Below, piece after piece: positions 1 through 52,726 of a stretch of 64,000 bases of DNA. The translations under genes and the position numbers were made by a program. The DNA lies in the NCBI GenBank assembly GCA_000165345.1, contig CM000432.1, positions 672,001-736,000 of the forward strand, given 5' to 3'. The first letter of the stretch is position 1; the number at the start of each line of letters is the position of its first letter. Below the pieces are notes generated by a model, which saw only the letters and a program-made list of their open reading frames with translations, was not told where the DNA came from and searched no databases.

Positions 1-3000
1 CCACGAAATTAAATATGACAGCAACTTCATTTACAGCAACAGGCGCAGCTGCTTCAATTATCTCGAATAGACTTTCATTTATCTATGGCATTAAAGGACC
101 CTCTGTAACAATTGATACTGCATGTTCGTCTTCATTAGTTGCATTAGATATTGCAAAAAAAGATATTAATTTTGGTAATATAGAAACAGCAATTGTAGCA
201 GGCGTGCAGCTTTTATTATCTCCCTTGTATTATATAGTTTTTTCCAAAGCTAATATGCTTAGTCCTAGGGGAGAATGTAGAGCATTTGATGAATTATCTG
301 ATGGATTCTTAAGAGGAGAGGGTTGTATATCATTGATAATAGAAAACCATTTAAAATCCTTTGGAAAAAAAATATATGGTCGAATTTGTGGTACAGCTGT
401 AAATCAGGACGGAAAAAGTGCGAGCTTAACTGCCCCGAATGGACCTTCTCAAAAACGTGTAATTATTAATGCAATTGAAGATTCTTGCATTTCGAATAAT
501 GATATATTTTATATAGAATCTCATGGAACTGGAACACCTTTAGGGGATCCAATAGAATTCGGTGCAATATCAGATGTTTTTAAAAATAGGGCAAATAAGC
601 TTTACATTGGAACTCTAAAACCTAATATTGGTCACTTAGAAGGTGCTTCTGGAGTTGCTGGAATTTTGAAAGCTATATTAGTAGTTAATAATGGAGTAAT
701 TCCTCCGAATATTTTAATAAATAAGTTAAATTCAGGTTTATGTTTTGATGATTCTAATATGAACATAGTATTTCCTACAAATAAAGTTGAAACCAATTCA
801 AAAAGTTTAATTGCAGGAGTATCATCATTTGGATTTGGTGGAACAAATTCTCATATAATTGTAGAAACAGGTGACAGTGTGAATTCATGGGAATTACCTA
901 GAATAGATTTCAAAAGAAAAAAATTTCCATGGATTACTCCAGCACATCCATATATTGGACCAAAAATCTCAGGATCTGATAATCTGTCTCACCCATCAGA
1001 ATTAGGTCTTATAATTGATGAAATGAGTAATATTACAAATATTAAAAAACCTGACTCAAATATAACCAGATTTGTAAGAAATGTTGGTGAAAATGTGTTC
1101 TCATCAATAGTTGGTCATGTGATACAAGGAAAGATTATTTTTCCTGGATCTGCATTTATTGAAATGTCAATAGGTGGACTCATTAATTACTCTATTCGGA
1201 GTGGAATTAAAGATGTAAGCTTACTTACTATTAGCAATATTCAATTCATTAAGCCTCTAATTTTCCCAAATGAATTAGGACGGAATCCTCAAGGAAAATT
1301 AATATGTGACATTTCTCCATATGAAAATAATAATAGGAAATTAAATATACGTATTTCAACATCAGGAATTGAATATGGTATTGACGAAATGATCTATCAT
1401 TCAACATTTACTGCAGAAATTAGTAATGATGACAATTTGAAGCTTTCTGATGAGACAATAAACTTTGATAAATGCTCAAATTTTAATTCTGATCAATTTT
1501 ATTCAGAATTAAATGAAATAGGGCTAAATTATTCTGAAAAATATAAATCTATTAGAAAAATATATAAAAACAAGACTGAGATATTTGGAATTATTGAAAT
1601 TGATTCTTTAAATCGAGAAATTGATACATTTTTCTTACATCCTTCATTATTAGATGGATGTTTTCAATTATTCGCTTTATTTATTGAAAATCATGAAAAT
1701 AAAGCCAATAAACCATTTATTCCTGTGAGTATTGAAGAAATGATATTTAAACCAATTTTCAATAATAATAAATATATTGTTCCTTATAACTCATTAACTA
1801 ACTTGAAATTTATTCATCCAATAAATAGATTATTTGCTTGCATTAAAAACAAAAAAATACTAAATAGCGAAGGAATAAAAGTAGACATAAATATATATAT
1901 TAGAGACGAAGGAACTGATGGGTTAATACAAATATGTGAAATTAGAAATCTGCACTTCAGAGAATTGATTCCGATGAAAACCATAAACTATCTCCCAATA
2001 AAAGATCATTACTCATGGATATCTACTTATAGAGAATTAGAACACAAATTTGATAATGATGAAGAATTAAATAAGCTAAAGTTTCTTTTTACATCTTTAG
2101 AAGTGAATAAATTATCACTCGAACAGTTTGATTACTTTGATAACAATAAAATTCTGAATTTGATTCAAGAAAATATTTTTTCCTTCAGTACTATACCTGT
2201 ATATATTACAAGCACAAACGAAAAAGATTCATATAAAGAGCTTATTTCTATACAAAGAACTCTTCAAAACATTTATAAAAATATTGATTCATATAATAAA
2301 TTAACAATTATTTTTGTCACTATCGGTGCGAACTTATTATGTGGCAAAAATACTTTATCATCTCACTTTCAATCATCTTTACTTTCATATTTAAGGTCTG
2401 CGAGCAACGAATTCAATCAATTAGGAAAAATAAGTTTGATTATTGTTGATTGGAATAGTATTTCAAACCTAAAAATTAACAAAAACTTTTGCCAAATATT
2501 GAAATTGATATATAACAATGTTATAAATAAAAAATGGTTTGAAAAAGAATATCAGTTACTAGAGTACAATAATGAAATTAAAATCAAAACTATTAAAATA
2601 AAAGAGTCAATTAGTCCATATAATAATTATATGGCTTTAAAACTTACAAATAGAGGAGCAATATCGAATATTATAACCAATTTACAGAAGTTTAGGGTTG
2701 TTCCTATGGAAGGGGAGGTGGAAATAAGAATAAGAGCAATTGGCCTGAATTTCAGAGATGTTTTAAATGTTATGGGATTATATCCTGGCGATCCTGGAAA
2801 ACCAGGGAGTGATTTTTCGGGTACAGTAGTATCTGTAGGGCCTGGAGTGAAAAATATTCAAGTTGGTGACGATGTATTTGGTCTTTCTCAGGGTTGTATT
2901 GAAACATATCATACTACAAATGCTTTGTTGGTTGCGAAAAAACCTAAATTATTAACATTTGAAGAGGCTGCATCAATCCCAACGATTTTTTCAACAGTAA

Positions 3001-6000
3001 AAGTTTCTTTAAACCAGTATTCAAAACTAAAAAAAGGTGATTGCGTTCTAATTCATGTTGCTTCCGGTGGAGTTGGATTAGCTGCAATACAAATTTGTTC
3101 TAGAATTGGTGCAAACATCATTGCTACAGTTGGAAGCATTAAAAAGGTTGAATATCTCAAATCTATTGGGATTAAATTTGTTTCAAGCAGCAGAGATTAT
3201 ACAAAATTCTCTCAAGATATGAAATATTTTATGAGTGAATTGAATATTGATGGTGTTGATATTGTTATAAATAGCTTAGTAGGAGAATTTATTCCGTTGT
3301 CAATGAAATTTTTAAAAAGAAATGGAACTTTTATTGAACTTGGAAAACGTGAAATATTAAGTGAAAATCAATTAAAAGAAATTAGGACAGACATCAATTA
3401 TCAAACTGTTGAATTTGACAAGTTGGTTGAAAATGACATTGTTTGGTTCCAAAATCTATTACAAGAGATAATGATAGATATAAATAAAGGAAAAATCCAA
3501 CCAATACCAACTAAAGTATTTAGTATTCAAGATAAATCAGGAATAATTGACGGATTTAGATATATACAACATGCTAGCCACATAGGGAAGGTTATACTGT
3601 CAAATCCAAGCACTTCAATTTGCTCATACAGTAAAGATGCATACATTATTACCGGTGGGATGGGCTCACTTGGTTTGGTTGTTGCAAATTGGTTAGTTGA
3701 AGAAGGAACGAAAAATATTATATTAATGGGTAGGAGTTCAATAGATTTTGAAAATAAATTTGCAATCAAGCTATTAGAGTTAAGTGAGAAGGGAAAAATA
3801 AACTTGGAAATGCTTAAATGCAATATTTGTGATTTAAATTCACTATTTAATATTATTAATAAAATTAAAGGAAAATATAATATTAGAGCAATCATTCATG
3901 CTGCAGGCGTGCTTAATGACGGGAGCATACTTTCGCAAACTGATTCAACTTTCCTGAGTACATTTCTTCCAAAATCTATCGGGGCTTGGAATATTCATTA
4001 CATTACAACTTCCTTACTAGAGCATATTCCACTTTTAATTATGTTTTCATCAATATCAGCACTGATAGGAAACAATGGTCAGACTAATTATTCTGCAGCT
4101 AATGGCAATATTGATTATTTATCAGAGATACGCTCTCAACTTGGAATGAAATCAATCAGTATTCAATGGGGTCCTTGGGGTGAACAAGGCATGGCAAAAG
4201 AAAACTTAAATTTAAAAATGTTAAAAGCAATTGGACTAGTTCCAATAAAAAATTCCTTAGGTCTTATCTCACTAGGAGGAATAATTTCTAATTGTATGAT
4301 AAACAAAGTTAATAAATATATTGTACAACCATTAGATCCTTTGGTCGTAAAAAATAATGCATTAACACACATTTTCAGTGAAATTGAATCAGAAGTACAA
4401 GAAACAAGAAATGGATATCTCTTTTCGACAATGAACTCGGAAGAATTACATTTATTCGTGCTTTCAAGTATTAAAGAAGCAATTTCAGATGCAATTGGAA
4501 TTGATGTTAATCTTATTGATTCAGAATTGCCATTTAAAGACCTGGGAATCGATTCTTTGTCTGCAGTAGAATTAAGAAATACTCTAACTTCAAAATTTGA
4601 AGTTAATCTTCCTCCAACTATAATAATTGACTATCCAACAATTTCAGAACTTTGCAAATATATAGAGATGATTATTGGAAAGAAAAATGTTAAGGAATTT
4701 GATAATAAAAATATAATACATTCTAATTTTAAGAAAAGTGATATTTTTATATCAGGAATTGGAATCAGAGTCCCCGGGGATGCAAGTTCAGTTTTTAAAT
4801 TCTGGAAAAACATGACTAGTCTGGTAACCTGTATATCTGAAATCCCTTATGAAAGATGGGATGTTGATAAGTTATTTGGAGATTACAATGACAAAAATGC
4901 AACATATTATACAAGAAAGGGAGGATTTATTTCTATCGTTGATATTTTCGACTACTCTAAATATCAAATATCGAAAGAGGAAGCAATTCAAATGGATCCT
5001 AATCAAAGGATAGCTTTAGATACTTGTTTTTCTGCATTATCGGATGCAGAGATTGAAATTAAAGATTTATTCAATACAAATGTGGGTGTATTTGCAGGGA
5101 TGTGTAATGATGAATGGGCAATACTTTCATCTAAAAGAAATTATTGTAATGCATTTTCAGGAACAGGAAATGCAAAATCAATCATTTCAAATAGAATCTC
5201 TTATGTGTTTGGACTAAAAGGTCCGTCAATAACTATTGATGCGGCATGCGCTTCTTCATTAATTGCAATTGATCAGGCCATAAAATCATTGAAAAATAAC
5301 GAATGTAATATGGCCATTGCATTTGGAGTACAATTGAATTTATCTCCGAACAATTTTATTGTATTTAGCAAAGCAAAAATGTTGTCCAAAAATTCTGAAT
5401 GTAGAAGTTTTGACAAAGATGCGGATGGATTTGTAAGAGGAGAAGGGTGCGGAGCTATTGTACTATCGAACAATAATATTAAAATTAAAAAAAAATGGGG
5501 AAGGATATTAGGATCATCTACAAACCACAGCGGAAGATCAATTTCCTTAACAGCCCCAAATGGAGTTGCACAGCAAAAAGTTCTTTCCACCGCACTAAAT
5601 ATTGCTCGGGAAGAAAATAAATCCGATATTAGGCCTGGATATATAGAATGCCATGGTACTGGAACATTACTTGGAGACGCAGTTGAATTTGGTGCAATTA
5701 AAGAAGTATATAAAGATATGTACAAAATTATCGATAGTAACATCGACTCTCCACTTATTTTAAGTACAGTAAAGCCACAAATTGGACATTTGGAGGGTGC
5801 TGCAGGAATTGTTGGATTTATCAGACTTCTAGTAGTTTTATCATTTGGAGCAGTTCCAGCACTGTTAAATTATAAAAACATCAATCCACATATTGAAGTT
5901 GAAGATTTCAATATCGTTTTCCCTAATAATTCAACGTGGAAATTAAATAAAAATGTGGGAGGAGTTTCTTCATTCGGATTTGGTGGTGCAAATTGTCATA

Positions 6001-9000
6001 TATTAGTAGAGGGAGTTAAACAAAAGAATCCACTAATCAAAGATAATGAAAAATTGATATTTATGTTTACAGGGCAAGGATCTCATTACGATAAGATGGG
6101 TATTGAATATTATAATTCTAATGAAATATTTAGGAAATCAATAGATGAATGTTCAGATTTTCTGGACAAATTCCTCGATATTCCATTGAAAGAAGCAATG
6201 TTTATAGAAGGAGCCAAAGAAAAAATTAATATTGATGTTGAAATTTATAATCAACTTTCAATAGTTTCAATTGAATATGCTGAAATGATGTTATTAAGAA
6301 GTATTGGAATTTTTCCAGACATTATTTTTGGTCATTCTTTGGGCGAATATTTAGTGGCTGTTGCGGCTGGAGTAATGACAATTGAAATTGCATTGGAAAT
6401 AATATATCGAAGAGGTATAGTTATCTCTAAATTTGGAAAAAAAGGGATTATGGTAGCAGTAAGACGTTCTGAAGAACAAATTAAAAAAGCTATAAAACAA
6501 TTTGAAAATAGTCTTTCTCAAGAGCAAAAACTGAAAATAAGTCTTGGATTAATAAATGCTCCAAAAAATTGCATTATTAGTGGAGAAGAAAATCAAGTAA
6601 TGGCAGTATTAGAATTATTGGATTCCAGTAAGTCATATAAAAAACTTCCAGTTTCATATGCATTTCATTCAGTAATGTTTTCTGAGATAAGCAACATTTT
6701 ACATGAAGAAATAAAAAATAAAAACCTTAATTATATAGATAAAAAAGTCATAGTTTTTTCATCAATTTTGGGTTTAATGGTTAAAGATGAAATGTCAAAT
6801 TTAAACTATTGGTCAAGCCAGTTATTTAAACCTGTCAATTTTTATTCGATGATTAAAAATTTAGAAGAATTCATTATAAAAAATGAAATTAAAGTGAAGA
6901 ACATAATAGAGATTGGTCCAACTTCGTTGTTAACTCCGCTTTTAAAAGCTTCTTCAAAAGGGATATTAAACAACGCAAAGTTTTATTCCTTGATGAAAAA
7001 AGACTCGAATGTTAATCCAACTGAAGTTCTAGAAAATATTTGTTCTAATGTTAATATAAAAATCGCTAATAGATCTTCAAATGAAAATAATTTACCAAAA
7101 ATTGATTATCACCTAAAATGGAATGAAATATCACATCCATTTTTATTAAAAAGAATGCTTTCACCAATAATTAATTTAAATAAAATAGTTAAAGATTTAA
7201 GCTTTGTTTATGCGACTCCTTTGACGGAAAAAATATCTAAATTTTTCCACGGATATAAAAGAAATGGTGCATTCGTTATGCCAGAGATAGCCTTAATCGA
7301 AGTAATTTCAGCTGCAATAAACGATATTAATTCTCAAATTAGTATGATCGATAATGGGTTTTTATCGGTTGAGTCGAATGTTCCGATTTTCCAGCTTGAA
7401 AAAATCCATTTTGGAATTCCATGGGAATTTAGAACTTACAAAACTCAAGATGATAGACCTACGCTGATTTTTACCTTAGATTCTCGTAGAAATATTTCAA
7501 TTAGTTCAAATAAAGGAGGCCACATTAATGCAGATTTAAAAAAGAACTCAATACATCACCTGGATGCAAAATTAAATGTTTATTTCCCTGAGAATAAAAG
7601 AGAGTCAATTAAATTCCCAATACATGCTTTAGAAAATTCTGAAGCTTTATTATTTGAAGAAATTTACGGGCCAATAATTAAAGGATCTTTCCCAGTTATA
7701 AATTCAAGTAAATGCATTCGAAAGATAGTATTAAAAGAAAATGAATCATTTTCAATTTTAAAATTAAATTTCGATATGGAAACAGACTTAGAACCATCTG
7801 GAATTAATATGGGGTTATTTTATTCTATTGACAGATTTATGAATGTTCATCCAATGATACTTGAGTCATCAATTCACACAATTATGTTGGCTGCAATAAA
7901 AAATAATAAACATTTTGATTTATATTTTCCTACTAAAATTGACCTACTTAATATATCTAGCATTGATTTTACAAGGAATGTCTATGTTCATTCTGTTATT
8001 AGAGAACAAAATGAAGAATATATATTGGGAGATATATTGATTTATCATGAAAATCAATTTGATTTTCCTATTGTTGAAATAAGAAAAATTAGACTCGAAA
8101 AACTTAATTTCGAAAATAAAATACCTTTACTTTTAAATCAAGAATATGCATTTTTAAAAGAAGAATGGGAATTGCAAAATAATAATGAGCAAAATCATTA
8201 TGATAAAATCATTATATTTGGTTGTTCAAAAACATTTGATTTGTTTAAAAAAAACCTGGCCCAGAATATTTATTTTGTTGAAAATGAGAAAGATCTTCTG
8301 ACATATCTAAATTCAATCTCATCCTCAAAAATTTTAATTATAAACACATTTTTCCGAAGCGGAACTAAGTTTGAAGTTATTAGCAATGAAATTGAACTAA
8401 TTAAAGAAATAATTATTTCAAATGATAATTTCCAAAAAAAACAGAATAATTTTATCACGTGGTGGATAGTAACTAAGGGAGTAGTACTATTTAGAAATAA
8501 TCAAAGTATTAATAACTCAATCTGGAAAAAAATCAAAGAAATAAAGGAAAAAATGAGAGATTATTGCAGGGTATTTATGACAGATACAGACGATATTTAC
8601 TCAATTAATAATATAATTAGTTATCAAAAAACAGATGAATGTTGCTACAGGAATGGAGCTATTTACTTTTTAACGTTAAATTGTAAACAGTTAATTAATC
8701 ATAGGGTTTTTGATTTACGGAAAAATAAGAATCTGTCCATAGAAATAATTATGGTTGAAAATATAATAAATGAAAGCTTCAAATTCTTAGGAAAAGTTGT
8801 TTATTCTTGTAATACAAATATTTTGGGTCAGTACGTAATTATCGAGAATAATAATGATATTCAACACGAGATAAAAATAGGTGATTTAGTTATCACTGAA
8901 GTTGATAATAAATATTTGATTGGAATCGATGATTATAATTATTTTGGTCTAAGAAGCAATGTTGCACTTCCAAAAATTCAATATATTTTTGATAAAATTC

Positions 9001-12000
9001 CATTTAATTTGTTTGAAAATATAGTTATTAAAATTTCTAATAAAAACAAATTAGTAAAAATATATGAAATATGTTTCAGTATAATAATTAATGTATTAAA
9101 GCTAAATTCAGTGAACAAATCAAGAAAAATAACAGTAATTGGTAATTATGATGAGAAATTTTCGAAAATAATTCTATCTTTGGGTTGCAAATTAAATATT
9201 GATAATTTATCTAAGCCAGATTGTTTAATACAAATAGGTGAAGAAACCAAATTATTTAATATTAATCAAGATCCAATTGCTAAATTTAGAATTGGAATTA
9301 ATCATGAAGTTATAAATGAATGCAATAATGAAACTATACTTAATCCTAATTATCAAGAATCTAATCAACTTAAATTAGAGTTATCAAATCCTTATTTAAA
9401 TAAAACAGAAAAAATTAACTTTGTTAATAAGTTTGGATTAATACTAATTACAGGAGAAATGAAAAACATTACTTTGATAATAAACTGTTTATTTGCTTTG
9501 GGTTACAAAAAAATTGCATTAGTTAAAATGGACAATAATGCTCTTTCTGAAAAAATTTCTGAATTCGGAGAAAGTATTAAACTATTTAACTGTTTACCTA
9601 ACAAGGTTTCGATAAACAATTGTTTTAATAAAATTATTTCCGAATATCAAAATTTGGAAATAACTGGTTATATCCACTTAAGCTCTATTGAAATACTTAA
9701 AACAGATCAAGAAAAAGTGAATAATTATTCGCTAATTCCCTGGAATATCCACAATTTAGTTACAAAAAAAGGATATAATCTAACATTTTTCGTGATAATT
9801 TCAGGTATTTTTGGGCAACTTGATCAATTAAAATTTGGAATTGCTGAAAATTTATTTGAAAACCTAACATACCATAGAAACGAATTATTAAAACTTCCTT
9901 CAACTTATATTCTGGATAACAAAATTGTAAATTATATTGGAGGCAATAAAAGTTCATTATTTTCTATTGAAAATTATATTAATAAAATACCATTATTTAC
10001 AAATCTATTCAGTGAAATAATTAATAGTAAATTAAATGGAACTATAGTCCCCATTGAAATTGATGAAGAAGTTATTAATCAATTATCTAAAAATAGTACT
10101 GAAAAATCTAAGAAACTTTATTTTAAATTTGTTGAAAAAATATCTAGGAAAAATTTCAATAATATCAAATATGTTAAATTTTCAAATAATTTGTCTAAAA
10201 GAAAAAAGTTGATCGAAGAAATGGTATTAAAATCAGTAAATTCATTAATTCCAGAAAATAAGAAGTATAGCATGGATGATTCATTATTATCGATTGGTAT
10301 TTCTTCATTAAGTGCTATAGAACTTGTAAATAAATTGTCTTCAGAATTTAACTATGAAATATCACCATCTTTACTTTACGAACACCCTTCTATTAATTCA
10401 ATTATTAATTACTTGTTAAGTTTAAGTCATCATTTTGACGAAAATATTGAATATTTTGATGACAAAATAAATAGTGAAATTATTGAGAAAAATACTCTGC
10501 TAAATATTAACAACTACTTCATAAATCCTGAAATATTGGTTTCTTCAGTCAATAATGATTTAGATTTAAACTCCAGAATGTGTATTGTTGGTATGGCAAA
10601 CAACATCCCTGTTGCAGGTGCCTCAGTAGGTTTATTTTGGCATCTATTGAAAGAAAATAAAGATTTTGTAATAGAGGCACCAATAAATAGAATTGATTGG
10701 GGAGATTCTTTAAATACTGATCAATCAATTATTGGAAAAAGCTATTGTAATCATGGAACATTTATAGAAAATGCACATCTATTTGATAATGAATTCTTTA
10801 AAATAAATGAATATGAAGTTTTACAGATGGACCCACAACAAAGATTAATATTGGAAGTTTGTTTTGATGCATTACATGTTTCAGGATATAAAAATTTAAA
10901 TGAAATGACCAATTTAAATTTTGGGGTTTTTATTGGTAGTTGTACAAATGATTGGTTGGAAAAATTGTCTGACTTAGATTCCATAAATGCATATTCAGGT
11001 ACTGGGTTTTCGTCATCACTAATATCTAATAGGGTTTCCTATTCTTTTGGTTTAACTGGACCATCATTAACTATTGATACTGCATGCTCATCTTCACTTG
11101 TTTCTCTAAATATTGCAGTCCAAAATATAGAAAAAAAACAATGTAATGGTGCAGTTGTAGCAGGAGTGCAAATGACATTAAACAAGACGACATTTATTGT
11201 TTTTTCTAAATCGATGATGTTATCTAAAGATGGAAGATGCAAATCATTCGACTATTCTGCAGATGGCTTTGGAATTGGAGAAGGGGTTGCTGCAATAGTA
11301 ATTTTGCCTAAAAAAGAATGTGAGAGGAAAAATAAAAAAGTACTTGCCTATATTTCAGGTTCATCTGTAAATCAAGACGGAAAATCTGCAACACTAACTG
11401 CTCCAAGCAAGAATTCCCAAGTTAAATGCATTAACTTGGCTCTTTCTAGTATGGAACATATTCATCCTTCAATGGTAACGATAGTAGAGGCTCATGGAAC
11501 TGGTACATTAATTGGAGATTCCATTGAAGTAAGTGCATTATACGAAGCGTACTGTTCTTCTGAAAGAAAATCGAAATTAATGATAGGAAGTGGCAAATCA
11601 AATTTTGCACACACTTTTGCAGCTTCTGGAATAATTGGATTAATTAAATTAGTTTTAAGTCTCCATAATTCTATGATTATTGGGAATATACATTTAAAAC
11701 AACTAAATCCATATATTGTTCATTACGAAAAACTAATAATTCCAAAAATAAACACATTAATTCCAATTGAAAGTGAAGTAGCTTTTGGGTCAGTTTCATC
11801 ATTTGGATTTGGTGGTACAAATTCTCACGTTATAGTTGGTGTGGAAAAAAGTGATTTTGATATAATTTCATATATTCAAAAGTCTAAATTTAATAATTTT
11901 AAGAGAAAATCATTTGAATGGAAAAATTTTCCAATTTACGATTCAAATAAACCAATTATTGTATATACAAAAAATAGTTCAGGAATTTTTGAAAAATGTG

Positions 12001-15000: not shown

Positions 15001-18000
15001 CAACAATTATTTTGAAAAAATTTAACTTTAAAAACGAATCTAACAGAGCAGTTTTAGGAATTTTGAAAGGTACAGCTGTTAATCAAGATGGTAGAACTGC
15101 ATCTCTTACTGCCCCAAGTAGTAAATCACAGTCTGACGTAATTTCTCATGCATTACTTAGATCAGAAGTTCAATTTAATGAAGTATCAATGATAGAGTCT
15201 CATGGTACCGGCACACAATTGGGTGATCCAATAGAAATAGATGCGATAAAAACGGTTTATCAACTATCATCAAAGAAATTAGTAATTGGAGCTCTAAAAA
15301 CAAATATTGGGCATTTAGAAGCTTCGGCAGGAATTGCAGGTTTAATTAAATTATTGTTATCATTAAGGAATGGAATTTCGCCACCTAATTTACACCTAAA
15401 AAATCTGAATAAATATATCAATGTTGATAACACTAATATTGTTTTTCCAAGTTCAAAAACTAGGCTTTCTATCTCAAGCGATGAATCTTTTATTGGAGGT
15501 GTTTCTTCATTTGGGTTCGGAGGAACGAACGCACATGCAATATTGGAAGTTAGTAGTGCAAATAAAATTCCAATGATAAATGATATGGCAATTGCAATAC
15601 TAAATGAAGAATTTGAAAATGAATACACAATGAATATTACTCATTTAACTCAACTCCGTGAGTTAATTGCTAATAACACAATTTTTGAATCTTATTTCAG
15701 ATATTGCACAATGATTATCCTACAGATTTTAAACATAAATTTTTACGAAATTATAATTGAAAATAATGAAAAGTTACTCAGAGCAGAAGAAATGTATATT
15801 TTATTATTTGCATTTTATTATTCGATATATCAAACTTTAAAATATTGCAAAATTGTTGTCGATACATTCATTTCTGATGAATTTGGTTCAATATTATTTG
15901 ATACTATTACAAACAAAATTAAATTACCAAATGCAATAGAACTTCTTAAAGAATATTGTAATAAGAAATTATATTCTATGAATTCAAATCTAAAAATTTA
16001 TTGTTTAAATGAAAAAGAGAATCATCCATTTAAACTAGAAGAGGTTAAATTTTTAAACGCTAGTGTTGTGATAATAAATCCATTCACATTTAATAATAAA
16101 CAAAAAAAACAATTGAGAAACATGTCAAAATTAATAATACATAATGAAAGCAATTATTTACAGTTCATTGAAAATGTGATAAATAACTTTGGAAAAATGA
16201 GTAAGGTTTCAAAAATCGAAAGATTTCCATTAAACAATTATATCCACCCACTTCTTGATTCAGATATTGATTCAAGTTATAATATAGAAATTTCAAAATT
16301 CTTCATAGAGAGATATTGTGATCCTTCTTATGAAAATGAAACTATTCATCAGGGATCTATTATTATCATTTCTTTATTATTTGAATCTTTAATATCCATT
16401 TTAAACAAAAAACATAACCTTTCTTTGGAATTTAAAATTGAATCTATTGAAGGAATATACGAGACTGCAAATAGAGTGAGAAAATTTGACAAATATTCAA
16501 AATTGAAACTAATGAAGAATAAAGATCATTTTATTTTATGTGCTTTCAATGGACTTCCACTCTCATCACTCTCAATAAAAGAGAGTCTTGAGAGAAAACC
16601 ACAAGTTTACATTCCAGAAATAGAATCTCCCAAATATAATGAATTTAAAAAAACAAAAATTCCCAAAAATATATTAAAGTTGATTAGTTCCATCGAAGTT
16701 CACGAATCTTCGATATACATTAAACTTAAACTTCCTTTCTTTAATTTATCGGTTGAGTCCATTTTTTGTATTCACCCAGCCATATTTACCTTGATGATAT
16801 ACTCATCTATGGAAATCTTAAGTAAAAAGATAGATCCATTAAAAATAACAATTGAGAAACTCTCAAACATTATTATCTCTGATGTTTTTGATATCGAGAA
16901 AATATGCTGTAATTCAAGATATACATTAGAATTAGTATGTAAGATTAATGAAGGAAAAAATATTAATATAAACTTATGGGTAGCAGACGATTATGGGATT
17001 CAACCAACAGAATTATTCTTACAATGTGATGTTATTTTTACCGAAAATAAAGTTAATATAATTAATTCATCAACTGGATTAGTTTGGAATACTATTTGGA
17101 AAGAAATCAAATATAATTTGATTTCTGAACAAAAACAAGGAAATAAATTAATAATTAACTTTAACAAAAATACTATTATTTCAAGGAAGGATTTAATGGT
17201 TAACGACATATTCATGAATTATTCACAATTTTTAGAAGATAATTTTGACTTAAAAGACATAAATAATATAATTGTTGATATGTGTATTCCAATTCCAAAT
17301 AATTGTCAAATGAAAGAAATAGACCAAAGTTATTTTGTAATATCAGAAAATTGGGAAATAGATTTTATTCAAACATTTAAAAAAATAATAAATAAAAACA
17401 ACAGAAATGAATCGATAAATATTTTCATTTTAGTCAATAATACTGTTAAAACTGTAGAAAATGATCAAATTAATATGAATATGACCTGGGTATGGGGGTT
17501 TATGAGATCTTTGAGAATGGAATTAAGTTCTAAAGTAAAAATTTTACTGATTGATATTGACATTAATCAACTTGAAGAGAAAAGTTGCCTAAATACTGAA
17601 CAATCGATCCAAGTAACTAATATTGTATCAAATGTTAAAAGTTTGGATGAAGATGGGGAATATGAATTTGTAATTAGAGAAAATAAAATATTTGTTCCTA
17701 GATTGAAACAGTATGAATTTGGAAATCATATTAGGGAGAAATCTCAGACTGATCTAGAAATTTGTAACATTATTACCGGTGGTCTAGGAGGAATTGGATT
17801 GGCTATTGCAGAGTGGTTAATAGAAGTTGTTGGAATGAAAAATATATTATTATTAAGTAGAAATCCACATATGTCAACAAAAAAATCTAAAAAATGGAAA
17901 CAATTAACAGAAAAAACCAAAGAAAATATATTGATTGAAAAGTGTGATATATCAAATAGTGCAGAAATTGTAACTATAATTGAAAAATACAGTAAAATAT

Positions 18001-21000
18001 ATAAAAAAATTGGCGTAATGCATATTGCTGGCTCTCTAATTGATTCGAATATTCATAATCTTACCGATAATATTGTTTCTGATGTTAACTTGCCTAAAAT
18101 TAGAGGAATTATTAATTTACATAATGCAACTTTAAACAAAAATTGCGAATATTTTATTGCATTTTCCTCCATAACTTCACTTATTGGAAATATTGGTCAA
18201 TCTGCATATGCTGCTGCAAACTCAGTATTAGATTCTATTATTGAATTTAGAAGGAAACTAGGTATGCCAGGAAATAGCTTACAATGGGGTGCTTGGGCTG
18301 AACAAGGAATGGCAGCAGAGAATGAATTACTGCAAAAAAATTTGGTTAATGTCGGTCTTTCATTAATAAATAATAATATAGCATTTGAAATTATTAAATA
18401 TATTATCTCTGATTCAAACAAATTCCCGTCAGTTTTAGCGATTCAACCTGCAAATTGGGATAAATTTATAGATAAAATTGGAATTAGGTATGGAATTCTC
18501 AAAGAAATAACATCAAACAAAATAAATCATGATAGAATTACTATTCTCAATTCAATATCTGCTGAGAACAGAATAGATTTTATTTCAAATAAAATTATTT
18601 CAATTTGTAGTGAAGTTCTTGGAATTGAAAATGATCTGAACTCTGAACAGTCTTTGATGGACTTTGGAATTGATTCTATTATGGCAGTTGAAATTAGAAA
18701 TTCTCTTTGCGATAATTTTGGAATTTCCCTTTCACACACTATATTATTTGATTATCCCACAATTTCAAGCCTTTCAACATATATTAATCAGAAATTCATG
18801 TCAAACTGTAAAATAGAAAAAAGTCAAGAGCAAATGAATTTAAAGGAAAATTTGTTTGATTACAATGTCGCCGTAATAGGTGCAGCTTGTCGTTTACCAA
18901 AAAATATTACTAATTTAAGTGGACTTTGGGAACTGTTAATGGAGTCTAATTGTAGTGTAGGAAAAATACCTTATAATAGGTGGGATAGTGGCTTATTTTT
19001 CTCTGAAAATATTAATTCTGGAAAAATGTATACTGAGTCTGCAAGTTTTATTGATGGAATCGAATTTTTCGATAATTCAGAATTTAAAATATCTTCAAGT
19101 GAAGTCTATTATATTGATCCTCAACAAAGAATAATTATGGAAACTGCATTATTGGCTATAAAAAGCTCCAATGTTAAATTAGAAACACTAGTAAATTCCT
19201 TAACAGGTGTTTTTATTGGTTGTTCTTCTAGTGATTGGACAATCTTGACCAATACAGCATCAGTTCCTCCTGGGCCTTACACAGGTACTGGAATTTCCTC
19301 ATCAATATTATCAAACAGAATTTCTTATATATTTGGATTCCAAGGACCTTCTTTTACAATTGATTCTGCTTGTTCGTCTTCTCTTGTGGCCTTAGATTCT
19401 GCATTTGAAAAATTTAAAAACAATAATATTCAATTTGCTATAGTAGGAGGAGTAAATCTTCTTCTTTCTCCTCAACCATTTTTGGCGTGTTGCGCTGCAA
19501 ATATGCTTTCTTTTGATGGTATTTGCAGAAGTTTTGATGAAAAAGCAAATGGATATGGAAGAGGAGAAGGATCTATTTCACTATTGTTAACATACCTATC
19601 TAAAGCAAAAGAAAATAATGAAAAAATACTTGGTATAATTAAATCCACATCTGTTAATCAAGATGGAAAAAGTGCTACTATTACTGCTCCTAATGGCCCC
19701 TCACAGCAATTTGTGATAAAACATGCAATCGAAAAAGCTAATTTATCTCCTTCAAATATAACTTATATTGAAACTCACGGAACTGGAACCAAACTAGGTG
19801 ATCCAATTGAGTATAATGCTATAAAATCTGTGTTTAATTTGGAAGATAATACATTCGATAATAATGTTTGTTTATTGAGATATTCTCCACTATATTTAGG
19901 TGCAATAAAAGCTAATATTGGACATTTGGAAGGTGCTGCTGGAATTGCAGGTTTAATCAAATTAATTTTAGTTCTGAATTACAAGGTTGCTGTTCCAATC
20001 CCAAATCTTAGAAAAGTTAATCCATTAATCGAGTTAAATAATTTTAATGCAATATTTCCCATGGATAAAAAACCAGTAAACATTAAGAATGACTCTAACA
20101 TTATTTATGGAGGGATTTCATCCTTTGGATTTGGAGGAACAAATGCTCATGTCATAATTGAGTGCAATTCAGATAATATAACGGAAAACAGTATTTTGTT
20201 CCGTTCAGAAAATTTCTCTTTAAGAAGAAAAAACTATGCTTGGTCAGATACTAAACATCCTTTAATCGACGAAAAAATATTGGAAAATATCGGTAATAAG
20301 AACTCAGAACTAAATGGAATTAAATTATTTAGAAATATTAATCATAAAATATTTAGTTCAGTAAAATTTGCACTTAAAGTCAATAATGATATAATAAACA
20401 TGCTTTCTGATCACGTAATTGATAACAAAATAATATGGCCTGCTGCTGCATTTATTGAAATGATTTTAGGAGTTGCAAGAAATATATATATTTGTAACAA
20501 TGAACAAATTTCATTTTCAAAAAGAATTTTAAAAACTAACATAAGAAATTTATTATTTGAACAACCATTAATATTAGAAAAAAATGAAGAAAATATATTA
20601 GTTTGTGATTTTGATTTGAGACTTAAAAGAATAAAAATATATTCTGAGTTAACATATGAAAGCAATAATGAGTTGATTTATGTATCATCTGAGATTGGAA
20701 ACACGGATAAAATAGAAATGATAAATGAAGGGTGTTTAATAAATGATCTAGAGATTTCAAAAGAAAAGGAACTAGATATTTCATTAATTTATAATAGATT
20801 AATGGAATTGGGAATTCAATACGGCAAAAAGTTCAAGACAATAAAGAAAGCATGGAAACTAAAATCAGAAAATGAAGCTTTAACAAAAATACAACTTAAT
20901 AGTGACGAATATATCATTAAATCAGATGATTTAAGTGCCCAAGAACCTTTTCTTTCTTTAACAGAGTTAGGGTTTGGAATTCATCCAGCTTTGCTAGATG

Positions 21001-24000
21001 GAGCATTACAATCATCCTTTATTTGCATTAGCGAAATAAAAAACGATTTGGAAAAAATTATTTGGGTTCCATTCTCGATATCTGAAATAGAATATTATAA
21101 TAATCAAGAACCAATATTAGAAGCATGGGTACATTGCAAAGTTTCACCCACAAATAACAAAAATGAAGTTATCTCAGATATAAAAATCTATTCAGTGAAT
21201 AAAGATCTGCTATTTAATATCAAAAATATTAGGTATAGAAGTACAATTGATATAAGTAATAAAATTATTAAAGATTCAAAAGAAAATAATCCAGAAAATA
21301 TCAAAAATTGTTGGGGATTAACTTGGAAAAAATCGAATAACATTTTAGATAAAATTGAAAAGAAAAGATGGATGATATATTTGGGTGATGAAATTGAAAA
21401 AAAGAGCAGCTTAAATAATTTATTTAAATATTATTGGAACAAAAATGACATTTTAGAAGAGTTATCTGATTTTTCTGGTGAAATCAACATTGCATTCGTA
21501 ATAAATTCTGGAATCAATAATAAATTACATAATCATGGCATTGAAATAGTAAATTGGCTTAAACATCTATTTGATATTAACTCTAAAGTTTCTCGCTCTT
21601 CTGTTATTTTATTTATAACAGAAAACACAATCCCTCATAATAATAATAATCATAAATTTATTGGATCAGATATTTGGGGTCTTGTGAGATCGGCTAGGTA
21701 TGAACTTGATAAATATTCTCTTAGATTGCTTGATTTAGACTGCTTTACAAAAGATTTAAGTGAAGATAATTTATCAAAAATATTTTCATGTATTTTAAGT
21801 TCCAACGAATCAGAATTCATTTTTAGAAACGGAGAGCTGCTATTTCCCCGTTTATCAAAAATTTCAATCCCAATAAACGGACCTTTAAATATTAGATTGG
21901 CTGAAAGAGGTGCATTAACAAATTTATTAACAGAGATGCAAACAAATATTCCATATATAAATTCAGATAAAAAATTGGATCTAATCGACTGCTTTGATAA
22001 ATTGGAGAATTATTCTGAAATGAAAAATGAGCCTATTTTAAAAGATAACGAGGTATTACTGAGAATATGTTCTGTAGGATTAAATTTCAGGGATGTATTG
22101 AATGTTATGGGCTTATATCCAGGTGACCCTGGCCCTCCTTGTTCTGACTGCTCAGGAATAGTAGTTTCTGTAGGTAAAGGCGTGAAGCATCTAAAATGTG
22201 GTGATGAGGTATACGCAATGGTCCCTGGGTGCTTAAATACATTCATAGTTGCAATTGGAGATACTTGTTGCTTGATGCCAAAAAATTGTGACTTTTCTTT
22301 ATCTTCATCAATACCAACAATTTATTCTACTGTTGATATTTGTTTGAGAAAAATTTATAATATTAAGAAAGGAGATCGCGTATTAATTCATGCAGCTTCA
22401 GGAGGAGTTGGATTGGTCGCAGTAAATTACTGTAATTCTATTGGTGCTAAGGTATTTGCAACCGTTGGGAATAGTAAAAAGGAGAAATATTTGAGACACC
22501 TGGGAGTAAAGAATATTTCGACCAGTAGAAATTCTGAATTGTTCAAATTAGAAATGGAATGCTTATTAAAAGGAGAAAAGCTAGATGTGGTGATAAATTG
22601 TCTATCTGGGAAATATATTGAATATAGCTTGGAGTTACTTTCAAACAATGGTATCTTTATTGAACTAGGGAAGATAAACATTTTATCAAAGAAAGATGTA
22701 TCCTTAATAAAACCTGGAATTAGGTACGAAATTGTAGCTCTTGACGACTTAATATTAAATGATCCCTCATGGTTTGGAACTGTCTTAGTTGATATTAAAA
22801 CAAGAATTGAAGAATGTAAAGAATCTGTTATACCCTTAATAGAATTCTCAATGGAGAACCATAAAGATTCAAATGATCTAATCGAAAAATCTGGATGTAT
22901 TTCTGGATTTAGATTTATGCAGAAGGCAAATCATATAGGTAAAGTAGTAATAAAAAACCCAACTCTTGATAATTCTTTATCTAGAAAAAATGGAGCCGTA
23001 ATAGTTATAGGAGGAAATGGATCTCTAGGGAAATTTACAACGAAATGGCTTTATTTTAATGGATTAAAAAATATAATTTTGTTATCTAGGAGTTCAAATA
23101 ATTATGCTTCAAATCTACCTGGTGTTAAACAAATTAGCTGTGATATTTCAAATATTAATTCTACTATTTCAGCGATAAATACTGTACTTGAAAATCCAGA
23201 AAGTAAACCAATTGTAGGTATAATTCATGCTGCAGGAGTATTAGACGATAGGAAATTATTTGAACATTCAAAAGAGTCATTTAAATGCGTATATAGTCCT
23301 AAAGTTCAAGGCTTATGGAATATTCATCAAATAACTCAATATCTCTATATTGAATTGGAATTTTTAATCGCCTACTCTTCAATTGCGAGTCTATTAGGTA
23401 ATATTGGACAAGCAAATTATTCTGCGGCAAACTCTTTCATAGACTCTTTTATGAGCTATAGATCAAGTCTTGGAATCAATAGTTTTAGCATTCAGTGGGG
23501 TCCTTGGCTAGGAGAAGGAATGGCATCAAACAATTTAAGTTTGAAATTTGAGTCTACAGGATTAATTGGAGTAGATAAATTAACTGCGATGCAAGCGTTA
23601 AATACGATTATAAAATCAAAAAAAAAATCAATTCCAAATGTGATTTGTGTAGTAGATGCTGATTGGGGAAAATTAGTTTCTAATATTCCTCCCAAAACTT
23701 CTAATATCTTTACAGATATAATTAATAAAAAAATCATAGAAAAAGATTACAATAAGTCGAAAATTATGGAATTATTGGAAAAAAAGAGTTCGGTCGAAAT
23801 GGAAGATTATATAATTAATTTACTAAGGGATATTATTAAAACAGTTGTCACTGACGATAAAATAGATATTAATGATTCCAAATTACTAGAAAAACCACTT
23901 CACGAGTTTGGGATAGATTCACTTTCTGCTGTTGAGTTCAGAAATATTTTATCTAAACATACTGGAATATTACTTCCGACTACATTGATGTTCGATTATC

Positions 24001-27000
24001 CAACGATAATAAACATAAAAGATTATATTCTGAGTGAAATGGAGGACATTAGACTTGGAGACAAATCATGCGATCCTTTAGTTACTGATATTAAGAAAGA
24101 TCGAATATTAGATATTGCTATTATTGGCTTGTCTTGCAAATTACCTGGATCAACTGAAGATATTGAATCATTTTGGGAGATATTAACTGGTGGTATTAAT
24201 TGTGTTTCTAATGTACCTGTAGTTAGATGGGATCATAAAAAATATTTTAGTTTAAATCTAGAAAATTTTGGTCCATATTATTATGCAAATTATGGCTCAT
24301 TCATTGACAATATTGATATATTTGATGCACATTATTTTGGAATTTCCCCTTCAGAAGCAACAATTATTGACCCTCAACAAAGACTTTCCCTTATGCTTGC
24401 AGTACAATCAATTGAGGATGCAAAATTAAACTTGTCAAAATTGAAAGGAACAAAAACTGGTGTCTATGTTGGATGTGGAAATAGTGATTGGGCATTAATG
24501 CAAGGAAATCAAATATCTGAATCAGAATATATTTCACCTTATACTGGTACTAGTGTTGCGCTTTCACTTATTTCTAATAGGATTTCTTATAATTTAGGCC
24601 TGAATGGACCTTCTATGACAGTTGATACTGCATGTTCATCATCTCTTGTTGCACTGGACATAGCTGTACAAAATCTTAGATGGAAAAAATCTGATATTTC
24701 CATTGTAATTGGAGTAAATTTATTAATTTCTCCCCAAGCATATATTGTATTTTCCAAGTCAAAGATGCTATCTATAACGGGAAGTTGTAAAACTTTTGAC
24801 AAAGATGCTGATGGATATGTAAGAGGGGAAGGATGTTGTTCAATGGTACTTTGTAGATTTGATGAAAGAGAAAATGTAGATTTTGATAAAAAAACTTTAA
24901 AAGCTGAACAGAATATTATTATCTATGGTTTTATTAAAGGTTCAGCAGTAAATCAAGATGGAAGAAGTGCTTCTTTAACAGCTCCAAATGGTCCTGCGCA
25001 ACAGAAAGTAATAAAATCTGCTATTGAAGATTCGTACATAAAGTTAGATGAAATTTCAATTATTGAAGCCCATGGAACAGGAACACAGTTAGGGGACCCT
25101 ATTGAGTTTGGAGCAATAAAAAATGTTTTCAATTCCAGAAATAGGGGTCCAATTTATATTACAGCGTTGAAAACAAATATTGGACATTTAGAGGGAGCAT
25201 CAGGAATCGCAGGAGTTATAAAGATGATATTGATGCTTAATCATTCAATCGTTCCAAAAAACCTTCATTTTAAAACATTAAACCCATTGATTGACAATTC
25301 TAATTTTAATGCAATAATCCCAGATAGAAAATTAAAAGTTTCAGCTAACATAGGGGGAGTTTCATCGTTTGGATTTGGTGGAACAAATGCTCACGTAATA
25401 ATTGAAAAAAATATCTCAAAAATTCCTCTTGAAAATCAAAACTATTCAATAATCGAAAATACTAATAAGGAAGTTTCAAATAAGATAGCATTTATATTTA
25501 CTGGCCAAGGAAGCCAGTTCGAGAATATGGGTCAAGAGCTTTTTGAAAATGAACCTATATTTAGAAAATCAATGTTAGAATGCGCAAAGCATGCCAATGA
25601 ATATTTACCAGAATCTTTAATTGAAATTTTATACCCAGAAATTTCAACACCAAGGACTAAAGCTGGATCGAAAGATGCTGGTTTTTATGATATTAATGAT
25701 ATTTTGTATTCTCAGGTTGCAATTTTTTCAGTAGAGTATTCTCTTACAAAGTTATTAGAGAGCAAAGGAATAATTCCAGATTTAGTAATTGGGCATTCCT
25801 TAGGCGAATACTGCGCTGCAGTTATTGTAGGTGCAATTGAACTAAACCAAGCATTAAAAATGATAATAAATAGATCAAAAATATTGGAGAAATCAAATAT
25901 TAGTGATGGAGGAATGCTTGCATTGAGAAAATCTGCGAGTAGTATTGCAGAAATCCTTAAAGAGTTTGATGAAAATAATGTATCATTGGCTGCAGTTAAT
26001 GGGCCAAATAGTGTTGTGATTTCCGGAAGAAAATATATATTAAAGTCAATATTAGAAAGATTAGGTGGTAGTGGAAAGTTTCTTAATATAGATAATGCAT
26101 TCCATTCATCCCTAATGCAAGATGCATCAAATAAATACAAAGATTTCATTGAAGAAGAAATAGTTTTTTGTAATGAAAATAAAAAGAAAATAAAGTTTAT
26201 TTCTACATTGAAAGGAAGACTTATAAATTATTCTGAATTGATGAGTTCTGATTATTGGTCTAACCACATAGTTTGTCCTGTATTGTTTTATGACGCAATA
26301 AATCATGCACTAAACAAGTTTGATTGTACAATATTGTTGGAGATCGGACCTCAACCAATTCTTACAAAATTATCAATACAATGTATTCCAAGGGAACTTA
26401 AAACAAAAATTAAGAGCTTTTGCGCAATGCTTGGAAAGCCTTCAACAGAAATTGAGCATTTTAAATTAGTTACACATCAAATTAATCAAATATTTTCCCC
26501 GTACATGAATACCATTAGAGGAAACTCAGAAGTAAGCAATAAAAATATTTTCAATAATTTAAGACGTTTTCCATGGATAAACATCAATTCACATCCTTTA
26601 GTTAAATTGGAGACTGATAGAAAAATTTTGTTAAAAAATTTAAACAAAATGTTTGATATCTCAAAAGAAGGGGCGATAATTGAGTTAGTTAATGGAGGAA
26701 TTAGGGAAATTTTTAAGAATGAAATATTTAACTCTATGAAAATGGGTAGATATTATCAATGCGAAATTGTTTTAGAGAACCTGTCTTTTAATATAATAGA
26801 AGGTAATCAAGAAGGTTGGTTAGAAGTCGAGAAGAAAGATATTAATGGTTTTACAATAAATATTTGTTCACAAAATAATTTGACTTATACTTTATATGCG
26901 AAAATAATATTTAGGGAAGATGCAGAAATAGAGCTCCAAGAAATAAACATTGAAAATTCGGTTATTTCCATTGAGAAGTTCATTTCTATTGGTTTGAAAG

Positions 27001-51571: not shown

Positions 51572-52726
51572 TTATTTTTCTAAATGCTCGCTTTCTTTAA
51601 GTTGATACATGACATATCTAAACCAGTGTGATTGAGAGAATGATTTGGGAATTTTATTATAATCCTTAGTTTTAATATATGTAATGGAACATTTTTTGTC
51701 AAGCAGAACAGTCGCAATCATTCGCATGCTTGTATAAATATATGTAATAATAAGCTCCGCATGATCTGCATCTAGTTTAAAATATCTAACATAGTCCGAA
51801 TAGTTAGACAAAAAATTTGAAAGTTTCCTGCCATGTCTCTTATAATGGAAGATCCTATCACTTTTTCCACTAAGAATAAAGTACTTTGTTGTTTTCTTTC
51901 CGATCAATGAATCATCCAATACATCCTCCAGATAATTTTTCCAAAAAAAGGACGGTGCATTAAGAACAACGACTTTCATATTTTCTTTGATTAATAGCGA
52001 AGCAAGGGCAATATTCAATGTTCCGATACATAATCCATATGCTCCTGTATCAGAAAGTGAAGGAATTACGCCTATACGGAACAATTTGTTGATGAAAGCA
52101 GCAGAGCTCACTGCAGGTATGATAATATCTTTTTTTTTAGGCTTGCTGATCCAGTATCTAACCATTTTCTTGGAAAAATAAAGGTCGTTGGATCCATGAT
52201 AAACAAGATAGAACCAGTTAAGAAAAATGAATTGTGTCGAATTTACAATTTCCAGGCCATAGATGCTTGAAATGTAGTTGATATATTTCCTAAAAAATTT
52301 AAGAGATTCTTCTGAACACGCATGAGTGCTCAATCCACCCAGCGAGACTATAATCGTATATTTCGGAGGTAAACTTTTGTGAACAAAATGACCGCAGGTA
52401 TTTATTATCCTTGGTCCATGTTTGGCTTTGACTTTAATATTTTCAAAATCAGAATTAATATAATCTCCATAGAATGCTAGCTTGACTTTAATATCAAGCG
52501 TGTAGTCGCTTGTAGAGTAAAAAGGTTCATTAGGAAAATGGTTCGGTAAGGGAATATCTGAGCTGTCAGCCCTTTCCCTAAGTAAAAATGTTCTCGAGTT
52601 TTTTTCTTCAACAGGGACTACTTCTCTATAACCAGGTTGAAAAGGATTTTGGGTAAGACAACTATTTGGAGTGAATTGACTTATGAAGACGATAACAATG
52701 ACTAATTTCGCGAGTCTTACGAGCAT
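51572..52726 (-). CDS. Secreted alpha/beta-hydrolase-fold protein with a putative Cys-Asp-His triad (dienelactone-hydrolase-like), paralog A
   Basis: The N-terminal signal peptide is MLVRLAKLVIVIVFISQF. Conserved blocks shared with the ORFs at 53026-54018 and 55727-56851 are PKYT, GVIPS, G-x-C-x-G-(G/T) (here YGLCIGT), an acidic SD, and a C-terminal His (DADHAE). Confidence 0.65.
   Translation of the reverse strand: MLVRLAKLVIVIVFISQFTPNSCLTQNPFQPGYREVVPVEEKNSRTFLLRERADSSDIPLPNHFPNEPFYSTSDYTLDIKVKLAFYGDYINSDFENIKVKAKHGPRIINTCGHFVHKSLPPKYTIIVSLGGLSTHACSEESLKFFRKYINYISSIYGLEIVNSTQFIFLNWFYLVYHGSNDLYFSKKMVRYWISKPKKKDIIIPAVSSAAFINKLFRIGVIPSLSDTGAYGLCIGTLNIALASLLIKENMKVVVLNAPSFFWKNYLEDVLDDSLIGKKTTKYFILSGKSDRIFHYKRHGRKLSNFLSNYSDYVRYFKLDADHAELIITYIYTSMRMIATVLLDKKCSITYIKTKDYNKIPKSFSQSHWFRYVMYQLKESEHLEK

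Follow-up and report, generated by a model that had tools for sequence, protein, structure and literature searches.

Predicted excision and in-place decay of acyltransferase domains in CpPKS1, the modular polyketide synthase of Cryptosporidium parvum

The giant polyketide synthase (PKS) frame at the start of this window (the whole stretch of DNA analyzed, 64 kb in length) raises the question of how modules that have no acyltransferase (AT) of their own come to have their ACPs loaded. Six KS domains and a terminal NAD_binding_4 reductase are encoded in the frame (residue i begins at nt 15+3(i-1)), and because a KS active site, DTACSS, already stands at aa 34, the gene must extend upstream of the window. 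An ApiAP2 gene and further eukaryotic genes flank the frame, and its downstream neighbors on C. parvum chromosome 4 are aminopeptidase, VPS52, RAD1, and NifS genes. Eight ORFs downstream match chromosome-4 proteins of C. parvum Iowa II/ATCC with 100% identity, which identifies the frame as part of CpPKS1, the PKS of Cryptosporidium parvum, and specifically as its C-terminal 78%. CpPKS1 was reportedly described by Zhu et al. in 2002 as a protein of 13,411 aa with seven modules, an AL-ACP loading unit, and a C-terminal reductase. The frame does not differ in kind from that protein, being giant and intronless with 6 of the 7 modules and the terminal reductase; modules a to f of the window are CpPKS1 modules 2 to 7, and the loading unit and module 1 (~2,900 aa at the N-terminus) lie outside. 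The 2002 abstract is also said to give the modules "between 2 and 6" of six domain types, a range that already implies AT-less modules, and the AT-poor architecture has been in the literature since that year. A preliminary description of this DNA had called the arrangement unusual among eukaryotic type I PKSs, which overstates the case given the published CpPKS1 and the algal multimodular PKSs, most of which are without integrated ATs (PMC4661987). What is new here is the detail that modules 2, 4, and 6 have apparent excision junctions and module 5 a putative dead remnant, features of which we found no earlier description in the literature covered, the original 2002 and 2007 CpPKS1 papers lying outside it. 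The top library match for the frame, "polyketide synthase, partial [Cryptosporidium canis]" (KAJ1610357.1), is collinear with it from aa 5279 to the end at 41 to 85% identity per domain, and this one partial orthologue is the basis of every orthologue comparison below.

PF00698 (Acyl_transf_1), searched at E ≤ 10 against each module in full and against shorter pieces, matched the frame only twice, at aa 2015-2336 with E = 1.5e-31 and at aa 8494-8797 with E = 5.8e-47. The first match has GHSLG at nt 6330 and AFHS at nt 6660, the second GHSLG at nt 25791 and AFHS at nt 26097. An AT HMM built from 103 sequences and run with filters off over all six frames of the 64 kb returned the same two ATs and a weak in-register match at aa 5216-5286; it found no further AT in the window, including the 32 kb downstream of the gene. 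An integrated AT is therefore present in two of the six modules seen (b and f), and the other four (a, c, d, and e) have no functional AT of their own, where a canonical cis-AT line would carry one in every elongating module. These scans bear out the preliminary claims that ATs follow only KS b and KS f, whose starts (~nt 4737 and ~nt 24111) and GHSLG positions also agree, and that modules a, c, d, and e are without a functional cis-AT, the relaxed PF00698 scan being negative there. No divergent GxSxG with a downstream Arg and His, the pattern that would have spoken for a hidden AT, was found in them: module d has SDEFG and no recognizable Arg/His part. The order of KS followed by DH, ER, KR, and ACP proposed for all four modules holds for a and e (Table 1); in module c we found a dead ER and no DH or KR, and in module d an AT remnant and a weak DH-like signal.

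Table 1. Positions of the CpPKS1 frame, its domains, and the predicted sites of AT loss in the window
Feature	Position (nt)	Strand	Remarks
Open frame	3..31502	+	single, ~10,500 aa; stop at 31502; 5′ end cut by window start
Module a			KS-DH-ER-KR-ACP
KS a (module 2)	15..866	+	N-terminal third outside window; Cys/His/His intact
Junction a	867..947	+	KS end, 24 aa, FKRKKFPW, then AHPYIG (DH start); no AT
DH, ER, KR, ACP of a	1038..4664	+	aa 342-580, 899-1195, 1209-1389, 1486-1550
KS b (module 3)	4737..6011	+	active site DAACAS; His residues intact
AT b	6048..7034	+	GHSLGEY, Arg, YAFHS present; N-terminal motif GQGSH, not GQGSQ
Rest of module b	7035..10418	+	DH-like remnant ~aa 2398-2628; KR-like remnant ~aa 3241-3299; ACP aa 3422-3468 (GISSL)
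Module c			KS-(280 aa unassigned)-dead ER-ACP
KS c (module 4)	10602..11840	+	most divergent KS; Cys/His/His present, NFAH replacing NIGH
Junction c	11841..11939	+	FKRKSFEW 29 aa past KS end; no AT; AT HMMs negative
Dead ER remnant, module c	12813..13409	+	aa 4267-4465; NADPH motif GGVG changed to NGVF
ACP c	14028..14237	+	GVDSL
Module d			KS-predicted dead AT remnant-(weak DH-like)-KR-ACP
KS d (module 5)	14310..15548	+	triad intact
Predicted dead AT remnant, module d	15588..16208	+	aa 5192-5398; core aa 5215-5311 (nt 15657-15947) securely aligned
KIERFPLNNYIHPLLD, module d	16212..16262	+	degenerate post-AT-linker motif and HPLL-type DH start, by eye; compare f LRRFPWININSHPLV; weak DH-like signal downstream
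KR d, ACP d	17772..18788	+	aa 5920-6097, 6194-6258
Module e			KS-DH-ER-KR-ACP
KS e (module 6)	18864..20162	+	active site DSACSS; triad intact
Junction e	20163..20264	+	FSLRRKNYAW ~26 aa past KS end, then KHPLID (DH start); no AT
DH, ER, KR, ACP of e	20400..24032	+	aa 6796-7078, 7345-7606, 7661-7832, 7950-8006
KS f (module 7)	24111..25406	+
AT f	25479..26408	+	canonical: GQGSQ, GHSLGEY, Arg, NAFHS (malonyl-type AFHS)
KR f, ACP f, terminal reductase	28098..30218	+	aa 9362-9552, 9680-9718, NAD_binding_4 aa 9783-10068

The manner in which the ATs were lost appears to differ among modules. The frame contains the post-AT-linker motif F.[RK][RK].[FY].W at exactly three places, 24 to 30 aa past KS a, c, and e, and each occurrence matches the linkers that follow the ATs of f (LRRFPWININSHP) and b. 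In modules a and e the KS ends only ~30 aa before the HP(Y/L)I at which the DH begins, which leaves no room for an AT of ~300 aa, and junction e is arranged alike in C. canis. Judged from the sequence, all three junctions look like clean AT excision. A MAFFT alignment had given the impression of an AT remnant in module c ("KPIIVYTKNSSG" and "VSLWSIEY"), which we rejected: the z score from pairwise shuffling was 0.4, the scores from two AT HMMs and from hhalign did not exceed those of shuffled sequence, and the residues in question sit past the post-AT-linker motif.

Module d retains a stretch that matches the N-terminal part of an AT, scoring 19.1 bits (E = 4.7e-8; 0 of 2,000 shuffles) against an HMM of 126 cis-AT domains, with P = 1.7e-4 by hhalign and in-register phmmer matches to genuine ATs of at least 10 PKSs. 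Aligned to a Chromera PKS, module d runs continuously from the KS into an intact AT. These matches indicate that the stretch descends from an AT, and the state of its motifs predicts that it is catalytically dead: NEEFENEY stands in place of FTGQGSQ and SDEFGSI in place of GHSLGEY; neither the Ser nor the His of GHSxG, nor the malonyl-binding Arg, nor the catalytic His of xAFHS was found; and past HMM position 127 nothing of the C-terminal two thirds of an AT can be recognized. The remnant lies below the Pfam gathering threshold, with no PF00698 match at E ≤ 10 in the whole module or in short segments, and a two-sequence HMM of AT b and AT f, too weak a profile, detected nothing, the remnant included. 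AlphaFold2 run on aa 5175-5500 without an alignment was uninformative (pLDDT 37), as was a search of a protein index evidently without giant proteins, in which the module d stretch had no match and AT f matched only proteins of ≤540 aa. We considered "NNYIHP" in module d as a counterpart of the AT motif NAFHS and rejected it, a post-AT linker followed by an HPLL-type DH start being the better reading. The C. canis counterpart of the remnant also appears dead, with VANKLGS (ANKLG at the GHSLG position), and in the part of that protein matching aa 5279 to the end AT f is the only AT, module e being AT-less there too. It is extremely unlikely that the unassigned parts of modules c and d conceal functional but highly divergent ATs. 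Each of these modules does hold ~730 aa without a Pfam match, and in d some of this is AT-derived, but the remnant has lost its Ser, GHS His, Arg, and C-terminal two thirds and is only 41% identical between C. parvum and C. canis, as against 70% for AT f; in module c the AT searches stay at shuffle level and the post-AT-linker motif comes straight after the KS.

Whether modules without an AT still elongate bears directly on the need for a donor. All six KS domains keep the Cys-His-His triad and all six ACPs the phosphopantetheine Ser; the ACPs of AT-less and AT-containing modules are similar, and the KS domains are mutually 39 to 54% identical without obvious grouping. Because the KS triads and ACP serines are intact, the AT-less modules probably elongate. 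Some or all of them might instead be non-elongating, either skipped or used only to pass on or process the chain, giving fewer than seven extensions, as the preliminary description allowed; we regard this as improbable. It would suit module c, in which the KS is the most divergent and no working β-processing domain is left (the ER match, 43.6 bits with 0 of 300 shuffles, is to a dead domain, and no KR or DH was found), and the published product-length estimate is wide enough for it, spanning C28 to C38 (PMC6568194). A 16-sequence DH HMM was weakly positive in b (11 bits) and d (5 bits) and negative in c, and a two-sequence DH profile gave no support for DH-like remnants in c, d, or f. Against non-elongation, the retained KS residues include the HGTGT His that is missing from trans-AT KS0 domains, every ACP has its Ser, and identity between C. 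parvum and C. canis is 80% for KS e and 71 to 82% for the KR, ER, and ACP of d and e, which indicates purifying selection.

We lean toward the view that CpPKS1 is a hybrid line whose AT-less modules elongate and are loaded by ATs embedded in CpPKS1 or CpFAS1. ATs would have been retained in modules 3 and 7 and, we infer, in module 1 outside the window; they would have been cleanly excised from modules 2, 4, and 6 and have decayed in place in module 5. The AT-less modules still have the look of functional elongation modules, and malonyl for their ACPs would therefore have to come from the AT of another module or enzyme. The likeliest donors would be AT7, AT1, and possibly AT3 of CpPKS1, or the CpFAS1 ATs, each serving several ACPs, since the window holds no free-standing AT and type II FAS is reported missing, Cryptosporidium being described as without type II FAS or PKS components (PMC6568194, PMC2995488, PMC7464705). 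These two observations also count against a free-standing trans-AT with its gene at another locus of the genome, the standard solution of AT-less PKSs and the one that most algal multimodular PKSs use (PMC4661987). Modules a, c, and e moreover have no counterpart of the ~100-aa post-KS flanking/docking subdomain of bacterial trans-AT modules, and we consider such an enzyme an unlikely source of malonyl here. Self-malonylation, in which ACPs acquire malonyl from malonyl-CoA with no AT involved, has been claimed for some ACPs of type II PKSs; here it is less likely still, the ACPs being alike in modules with and without an AT and nothing in the sequence speaking for it. Self-malonylation is disputed even for type II systems, which counts further against self-loading in CpPKS1. 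The three options of the preliminary description (loading in trans, iterative use of the two cis-ATs, and non-elongation) are inseparable by sequence alone; the intact triads and serines disfavor the third, and the second can be kept with a caveat that concerns AT b.

In AT b, His2024 (nt 6084-6086) takes the place of the second Gln of GQGSQ. AT3 of Toxoplasma gondii TgPKS2 naturally carries the same His and is inactive, and in TgPKS2 the GQGSH substitution (Q72H) abolishes malonyl-CoA hydrolysis; the authors of the TgPKS2 work placed one such AT of C. parvum "in the 3rd module or later." The two domains are alike in this motif, with loss of activity demonstrated for the TgPKS2 domain alone. 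By this analogy AT b may be inactive, in which case the seven ACPs would perhaps have just two good ATs between them. Of all the ATs, AT b lies closest to modules 2 and 4, and its GQGSH motif counts against the embedded-donor reading.

Going beyond the embedded-donor reading, we offer the more doubtful speculation that CpPKS1 is a naturally occurring transitional form between cis-AT and trans-AT lines, in which two or three embedded ATs would serve seven ACPs across a 1.5-MDa polypeptide with no free-standing AT, and in which the module 5 remnant, its length conserved between species, would be kept as a scaffold or docking surface and not as junk. C. parvum, a major diarrheal pathogen, has only two lipid megasynthases, and CpPKS1 is one of them; it has been put forward as a drug target and also as the maker of oocyst-wall lipids. 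The assignment of ATs to ACPs fixes the number of extensions and therefore the product. The apparent excision junctions and the predicted dead remnant would represent two separate routes of AT loss in a eukaryotic assembly line, and as such they bear on the origin of trans-AT systems.

Among the closest known systems is CpFAS1, the type I fatty acid synthase of the same organism, which shares with CpPKS1 an AL-ACP loading unit, PKS-like modules, and a C-terminal reductase. Each of the three CpFAS1 modules is a complete KS-AT-DH-ER-KR-ACP (PMC2995488), whereas in CpPKS1 the AT appears to have been lost or killed in four modules. CpPKS1 resembles bacterial and algal trans-AT PKSs in having AT-less modules that would need an AT serving several ACPs, and in algae the loss of ATs from cis-AT ancestors has been proposed as an evolutionary scenario (PMC4661987). 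Unlike trans-AT PKSs, it retains two or three integrated ATs, with none free-standing in the 64-kb window, and modules a, c, and e differ from bacterial trans-AT modules in the short distance from the KS to the post-AT-linker motif. Bacterial AT-less PKSs such as leinamycin LnmI/J carry non-catalytic AT-docking remnants after the KS, which are usually described as flanking regions or linkers. Like these, the remnant in module d is a putatively non-catalytic leftover at the former AT site after the KS, but it differs in that it derives from the AT core itself, comprising the N-terminal helices and the nucleophile elbow.

The six KS-headed modules a to f lie in a single frame that stays open from nt 3 until the stop at 31502 and encodes 10,495 aa counted from the first ATG (nt 15). 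Because the KS active-site motif DTACSS already appears at aa 34, the gene begins upstream of the window. Eight downstream ORFs match Cryptosporidium parvum Iowa II/ATCC proteins exactly, which identifies the frame as the C-terminal 78% of CpPKS1, with modules a to f corresponding to its modules 2 to 7; it belongs to the CpPKS1 orthologue group. CpPKS1, described in 2002, has 13,411 aa and comprises an AL-ACP loading unit, seven modules and a terminal reductase (summaries in PMC6568194, PMC10394414 and PMC7464705). Genes downstream of the frame encode X-Pro aminopeptidase, VPS52, an ApiAP2 protein, RhoGAP, ALG11, a DEAD-box helicase and NifS. At 20-25 kb beyond the PKS, three alpha/beta-hydrolase genes neighbour one another; Abhydrolase_2 (phospholipase/carboxylesterase/thioesterase) matches two of them, and the third goes by the name alpha/beta hydrolase in C. 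hominis. Purines are in steady excess on the PKS coding strand (window 1-32000; GC skew +0.07 to +0.17, AT skew +0.06 to +0.09), and both skews are near zero from 32001 to 64000. The AT-poor architecture of CpPKS1 is already in print, the 2002 abstract reportedly giving each module "between 2 and 6" of six domain types.

Pfam scans, run on the entire frame and on the modules one by one, confirm the preliminary description at the coordinates it gave: only two KS domains are followed by acyltransferases (ATs), and modules a, c, d and e have none. At a relaxed threshold (E<=10), and with short sub-segments submitted alone, Acyl_transf_1 (PF00698) matched only aa 2015-2336 and aa 8494-8797, and GHSLG occurs at nt 6330 and nt 25791. 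A 103-sequence AT HMM, run in six frames over all 64 kb with filters off, returned these two ATs and, in module d, a single weak match that is in register.

Domain content of the modules and window positions of individual features
Feature	Position	Strand	Content	Source
Module a			KS (to aa 284)-DH-ER-KR-ACP	Pfam
Module b			KS-AT-(weak DH)-ACP	Pfam
Module c			KS-~730 aa without match-ACP	Pfam
Module d			KS-~730 aa without match-KR-ACP	Pfam
Module e			KS-DH-ER-KR-ACP	Pfam
Module f			KS-AT-KR-ACP-reductase (NAD_binding_4)	Pfam
KS-to-AT linker, module b	6012-6047
His2024, AT of module b	6084-6086
Stretch of module b	7035-10277		~1,080 aa, little recognisable domain content
KS of module c	10602-11840
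Stretch of module c	11940-12812 (aa 3976-4266)		~290 aa
ER remnant, module c	12813-13409
KS-to-AT linker, module f	25407-25478
Stretch of module f	26409-28097		~560 aa, no significant domain match
alpha/beta-hydrolase gene	51572-52726	-
alpha/beta-hydrolase gene	53026-54018	-
alpha/beta-hydrolase gene	55727-56851	-

The KS-to-AT linkers of modules b and f span only ~12-25 aa, in line with the short linkers described in TgPKS2; the linker domain of bacterial cis-AT PKSs is roughly 100 aa. Module b also retains two weak remnants, one DH-like (11 bits) and one KR-like (9 bits). Among the six KS domains, that of module c has diverged furthest, being 39-45% identical to the other five, and around its second catalytic His it reads NFAH where NIGH is usual. 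Module c further contains a dead ER remnant (43.6 bits against an ER HMM; CurK ER match, E 1.6e-8), absent from the Pfam output, in which the NADPH motif GGVG has become NGVF. The ~290-aa stretch between this remnant and the post-AT-linker motif matched neither a Pfam family nor any AT, DH, ER or KR profile.

That motif indicates how three of the ATs were probably lost. Each KS of modules a, c and e ends in GGTN[SA]H, and 24-30 aa further on stands F-x-[RK]-[RK]-x-[FY]-x-W, a pattern with exactly three occurrences in the frame (aa 299, 3962 and 6736). The same motif follows the ATs of module f (LRRFPWININSHPLV) and module b (YHLKWNEISHPF), in each case immediately ahead of the HPxx with which the next domain begins. 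A post-AT-linker motif so close behind the KS points to clean in-frame excision of the AT, and a hidden one has no room there.

Module d has a KS junction resembling those of b and f and unlike those of a, c and e, and its sequence behind this junction (aa 5192-5398) is of AT descent. A cis-AT HMM of 126 domains, cut from large PKSs with the Cryptosporidium orthologue excluded, scored 19.1 bits (E 4.7e-8) on aa 5186-5500, aligning aa 5215-5311 with AT positions 30-127; none of 2000 composition-matched shuffles exceeded 2.0 bits. A FabD-type HMM gave 6.2 bits (0 of 1000 shuffles that high), hhalign of the remnant against AT gave P 1.7e-4, and phmmer matched it to genuine AT domains of at least 10 PKSs, in register every time. 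A Chromera velia PKS aligns unbroken from the KS C-terminus into its intact AT, placing FTGQGSQ opposite NEEFENEY and GHSLGEY opposite SDEFGSI; module d has lost the nucleophilic Ser, the GHS His and the Arg, and nothing recognisable remains of the C-terminal two thirds of an AT. Applied to modules a, c and e, these tests were all negative. The divergent ATs that the preliminary description had considered for the KS-DH linkers of a, c, d and e were thus not found, and functional ATs hidden in the frame are scarcely credible.

The best match in the representative library, KAJ1610357.1 ("polyketide synthase, partial [Cryptosporidium canis]"), has a gene model whose residue 1 corresponds to C. 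parvum aa ~5279, inside the module d remnant; this partial start suggests a frameshift, gap or mis-called start in that assembly. It contains one AT only, the counterpart of that of module f, shares the AT-less junction of module e, and reads VANKLGS at the remnant elbow. Catalytic domains are 70-85% identical between the two species (module f AT, 70%), linkers 50-57%, and the visible half of the remnant 41%, with almost no gaps; the remnant thus evolves as a non-catalytic spacer does, while keeping its length.

How the AT-less modules are loaded is settled by sequence alone for none of five explanations. The Cys and both His are kept in 6/6 KS domains and the serine in 6/6 ACPs, which argues against the suggestion that these modules are skipped or non-elongating and makes it improbable. 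A discrete AT, undiscovered so far, seems similarly improbable; the six-frame AT HMM found no free-standing AT encoded in the 64-kb window. Cryptosporidium is reported to lack an apicoplast and type II FAS, and each of the three CpFAS1 modules includes an AT. Self-loading by the ACPs appears very unlikely. The best explanation, toward which we lean slightly, would have the ACPs of modules 2, 4, 5 and 6 malonylated by ATs embedded in other parts of CpPKS1 or in CpFAS1. The AT of module f is canonical (GQGSQ, GHSLGEY, Arg, AFHS), and that of module b reads GQGSH in place of GQGSQ. This substitution also occurs in Toxoplasma TgPKS2 AT3, where the natural His (H72) renders the domain inactive and H72Q restores activity (PMC9301873); by this analogy, the module b AT, one of two in the window, may not be a normal malonyl transferase. 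The TgPKS2 authors pointed to a single AT of this kind in C. parvum, "in the 3rd module or later" (PMC9301873).

The AT-poor arrangement is real and already known; the excision junctions, the module 5 remnant and the GQGSH of the module b AT are useful refinements and not a discovery. The frame is not a member of the canonical cis-AT PKSs, and two testable defining features of trans-AT PKSs, a discrete AT in the locus and a post-KS docking subdomain, are absent. The preliminary description called the arrangement unusual for a eukaryotic type I PKS; multimodular PKSs without integrated ATs are, however, common in algae (PMC4661987), so it is not exceptional for a protist.
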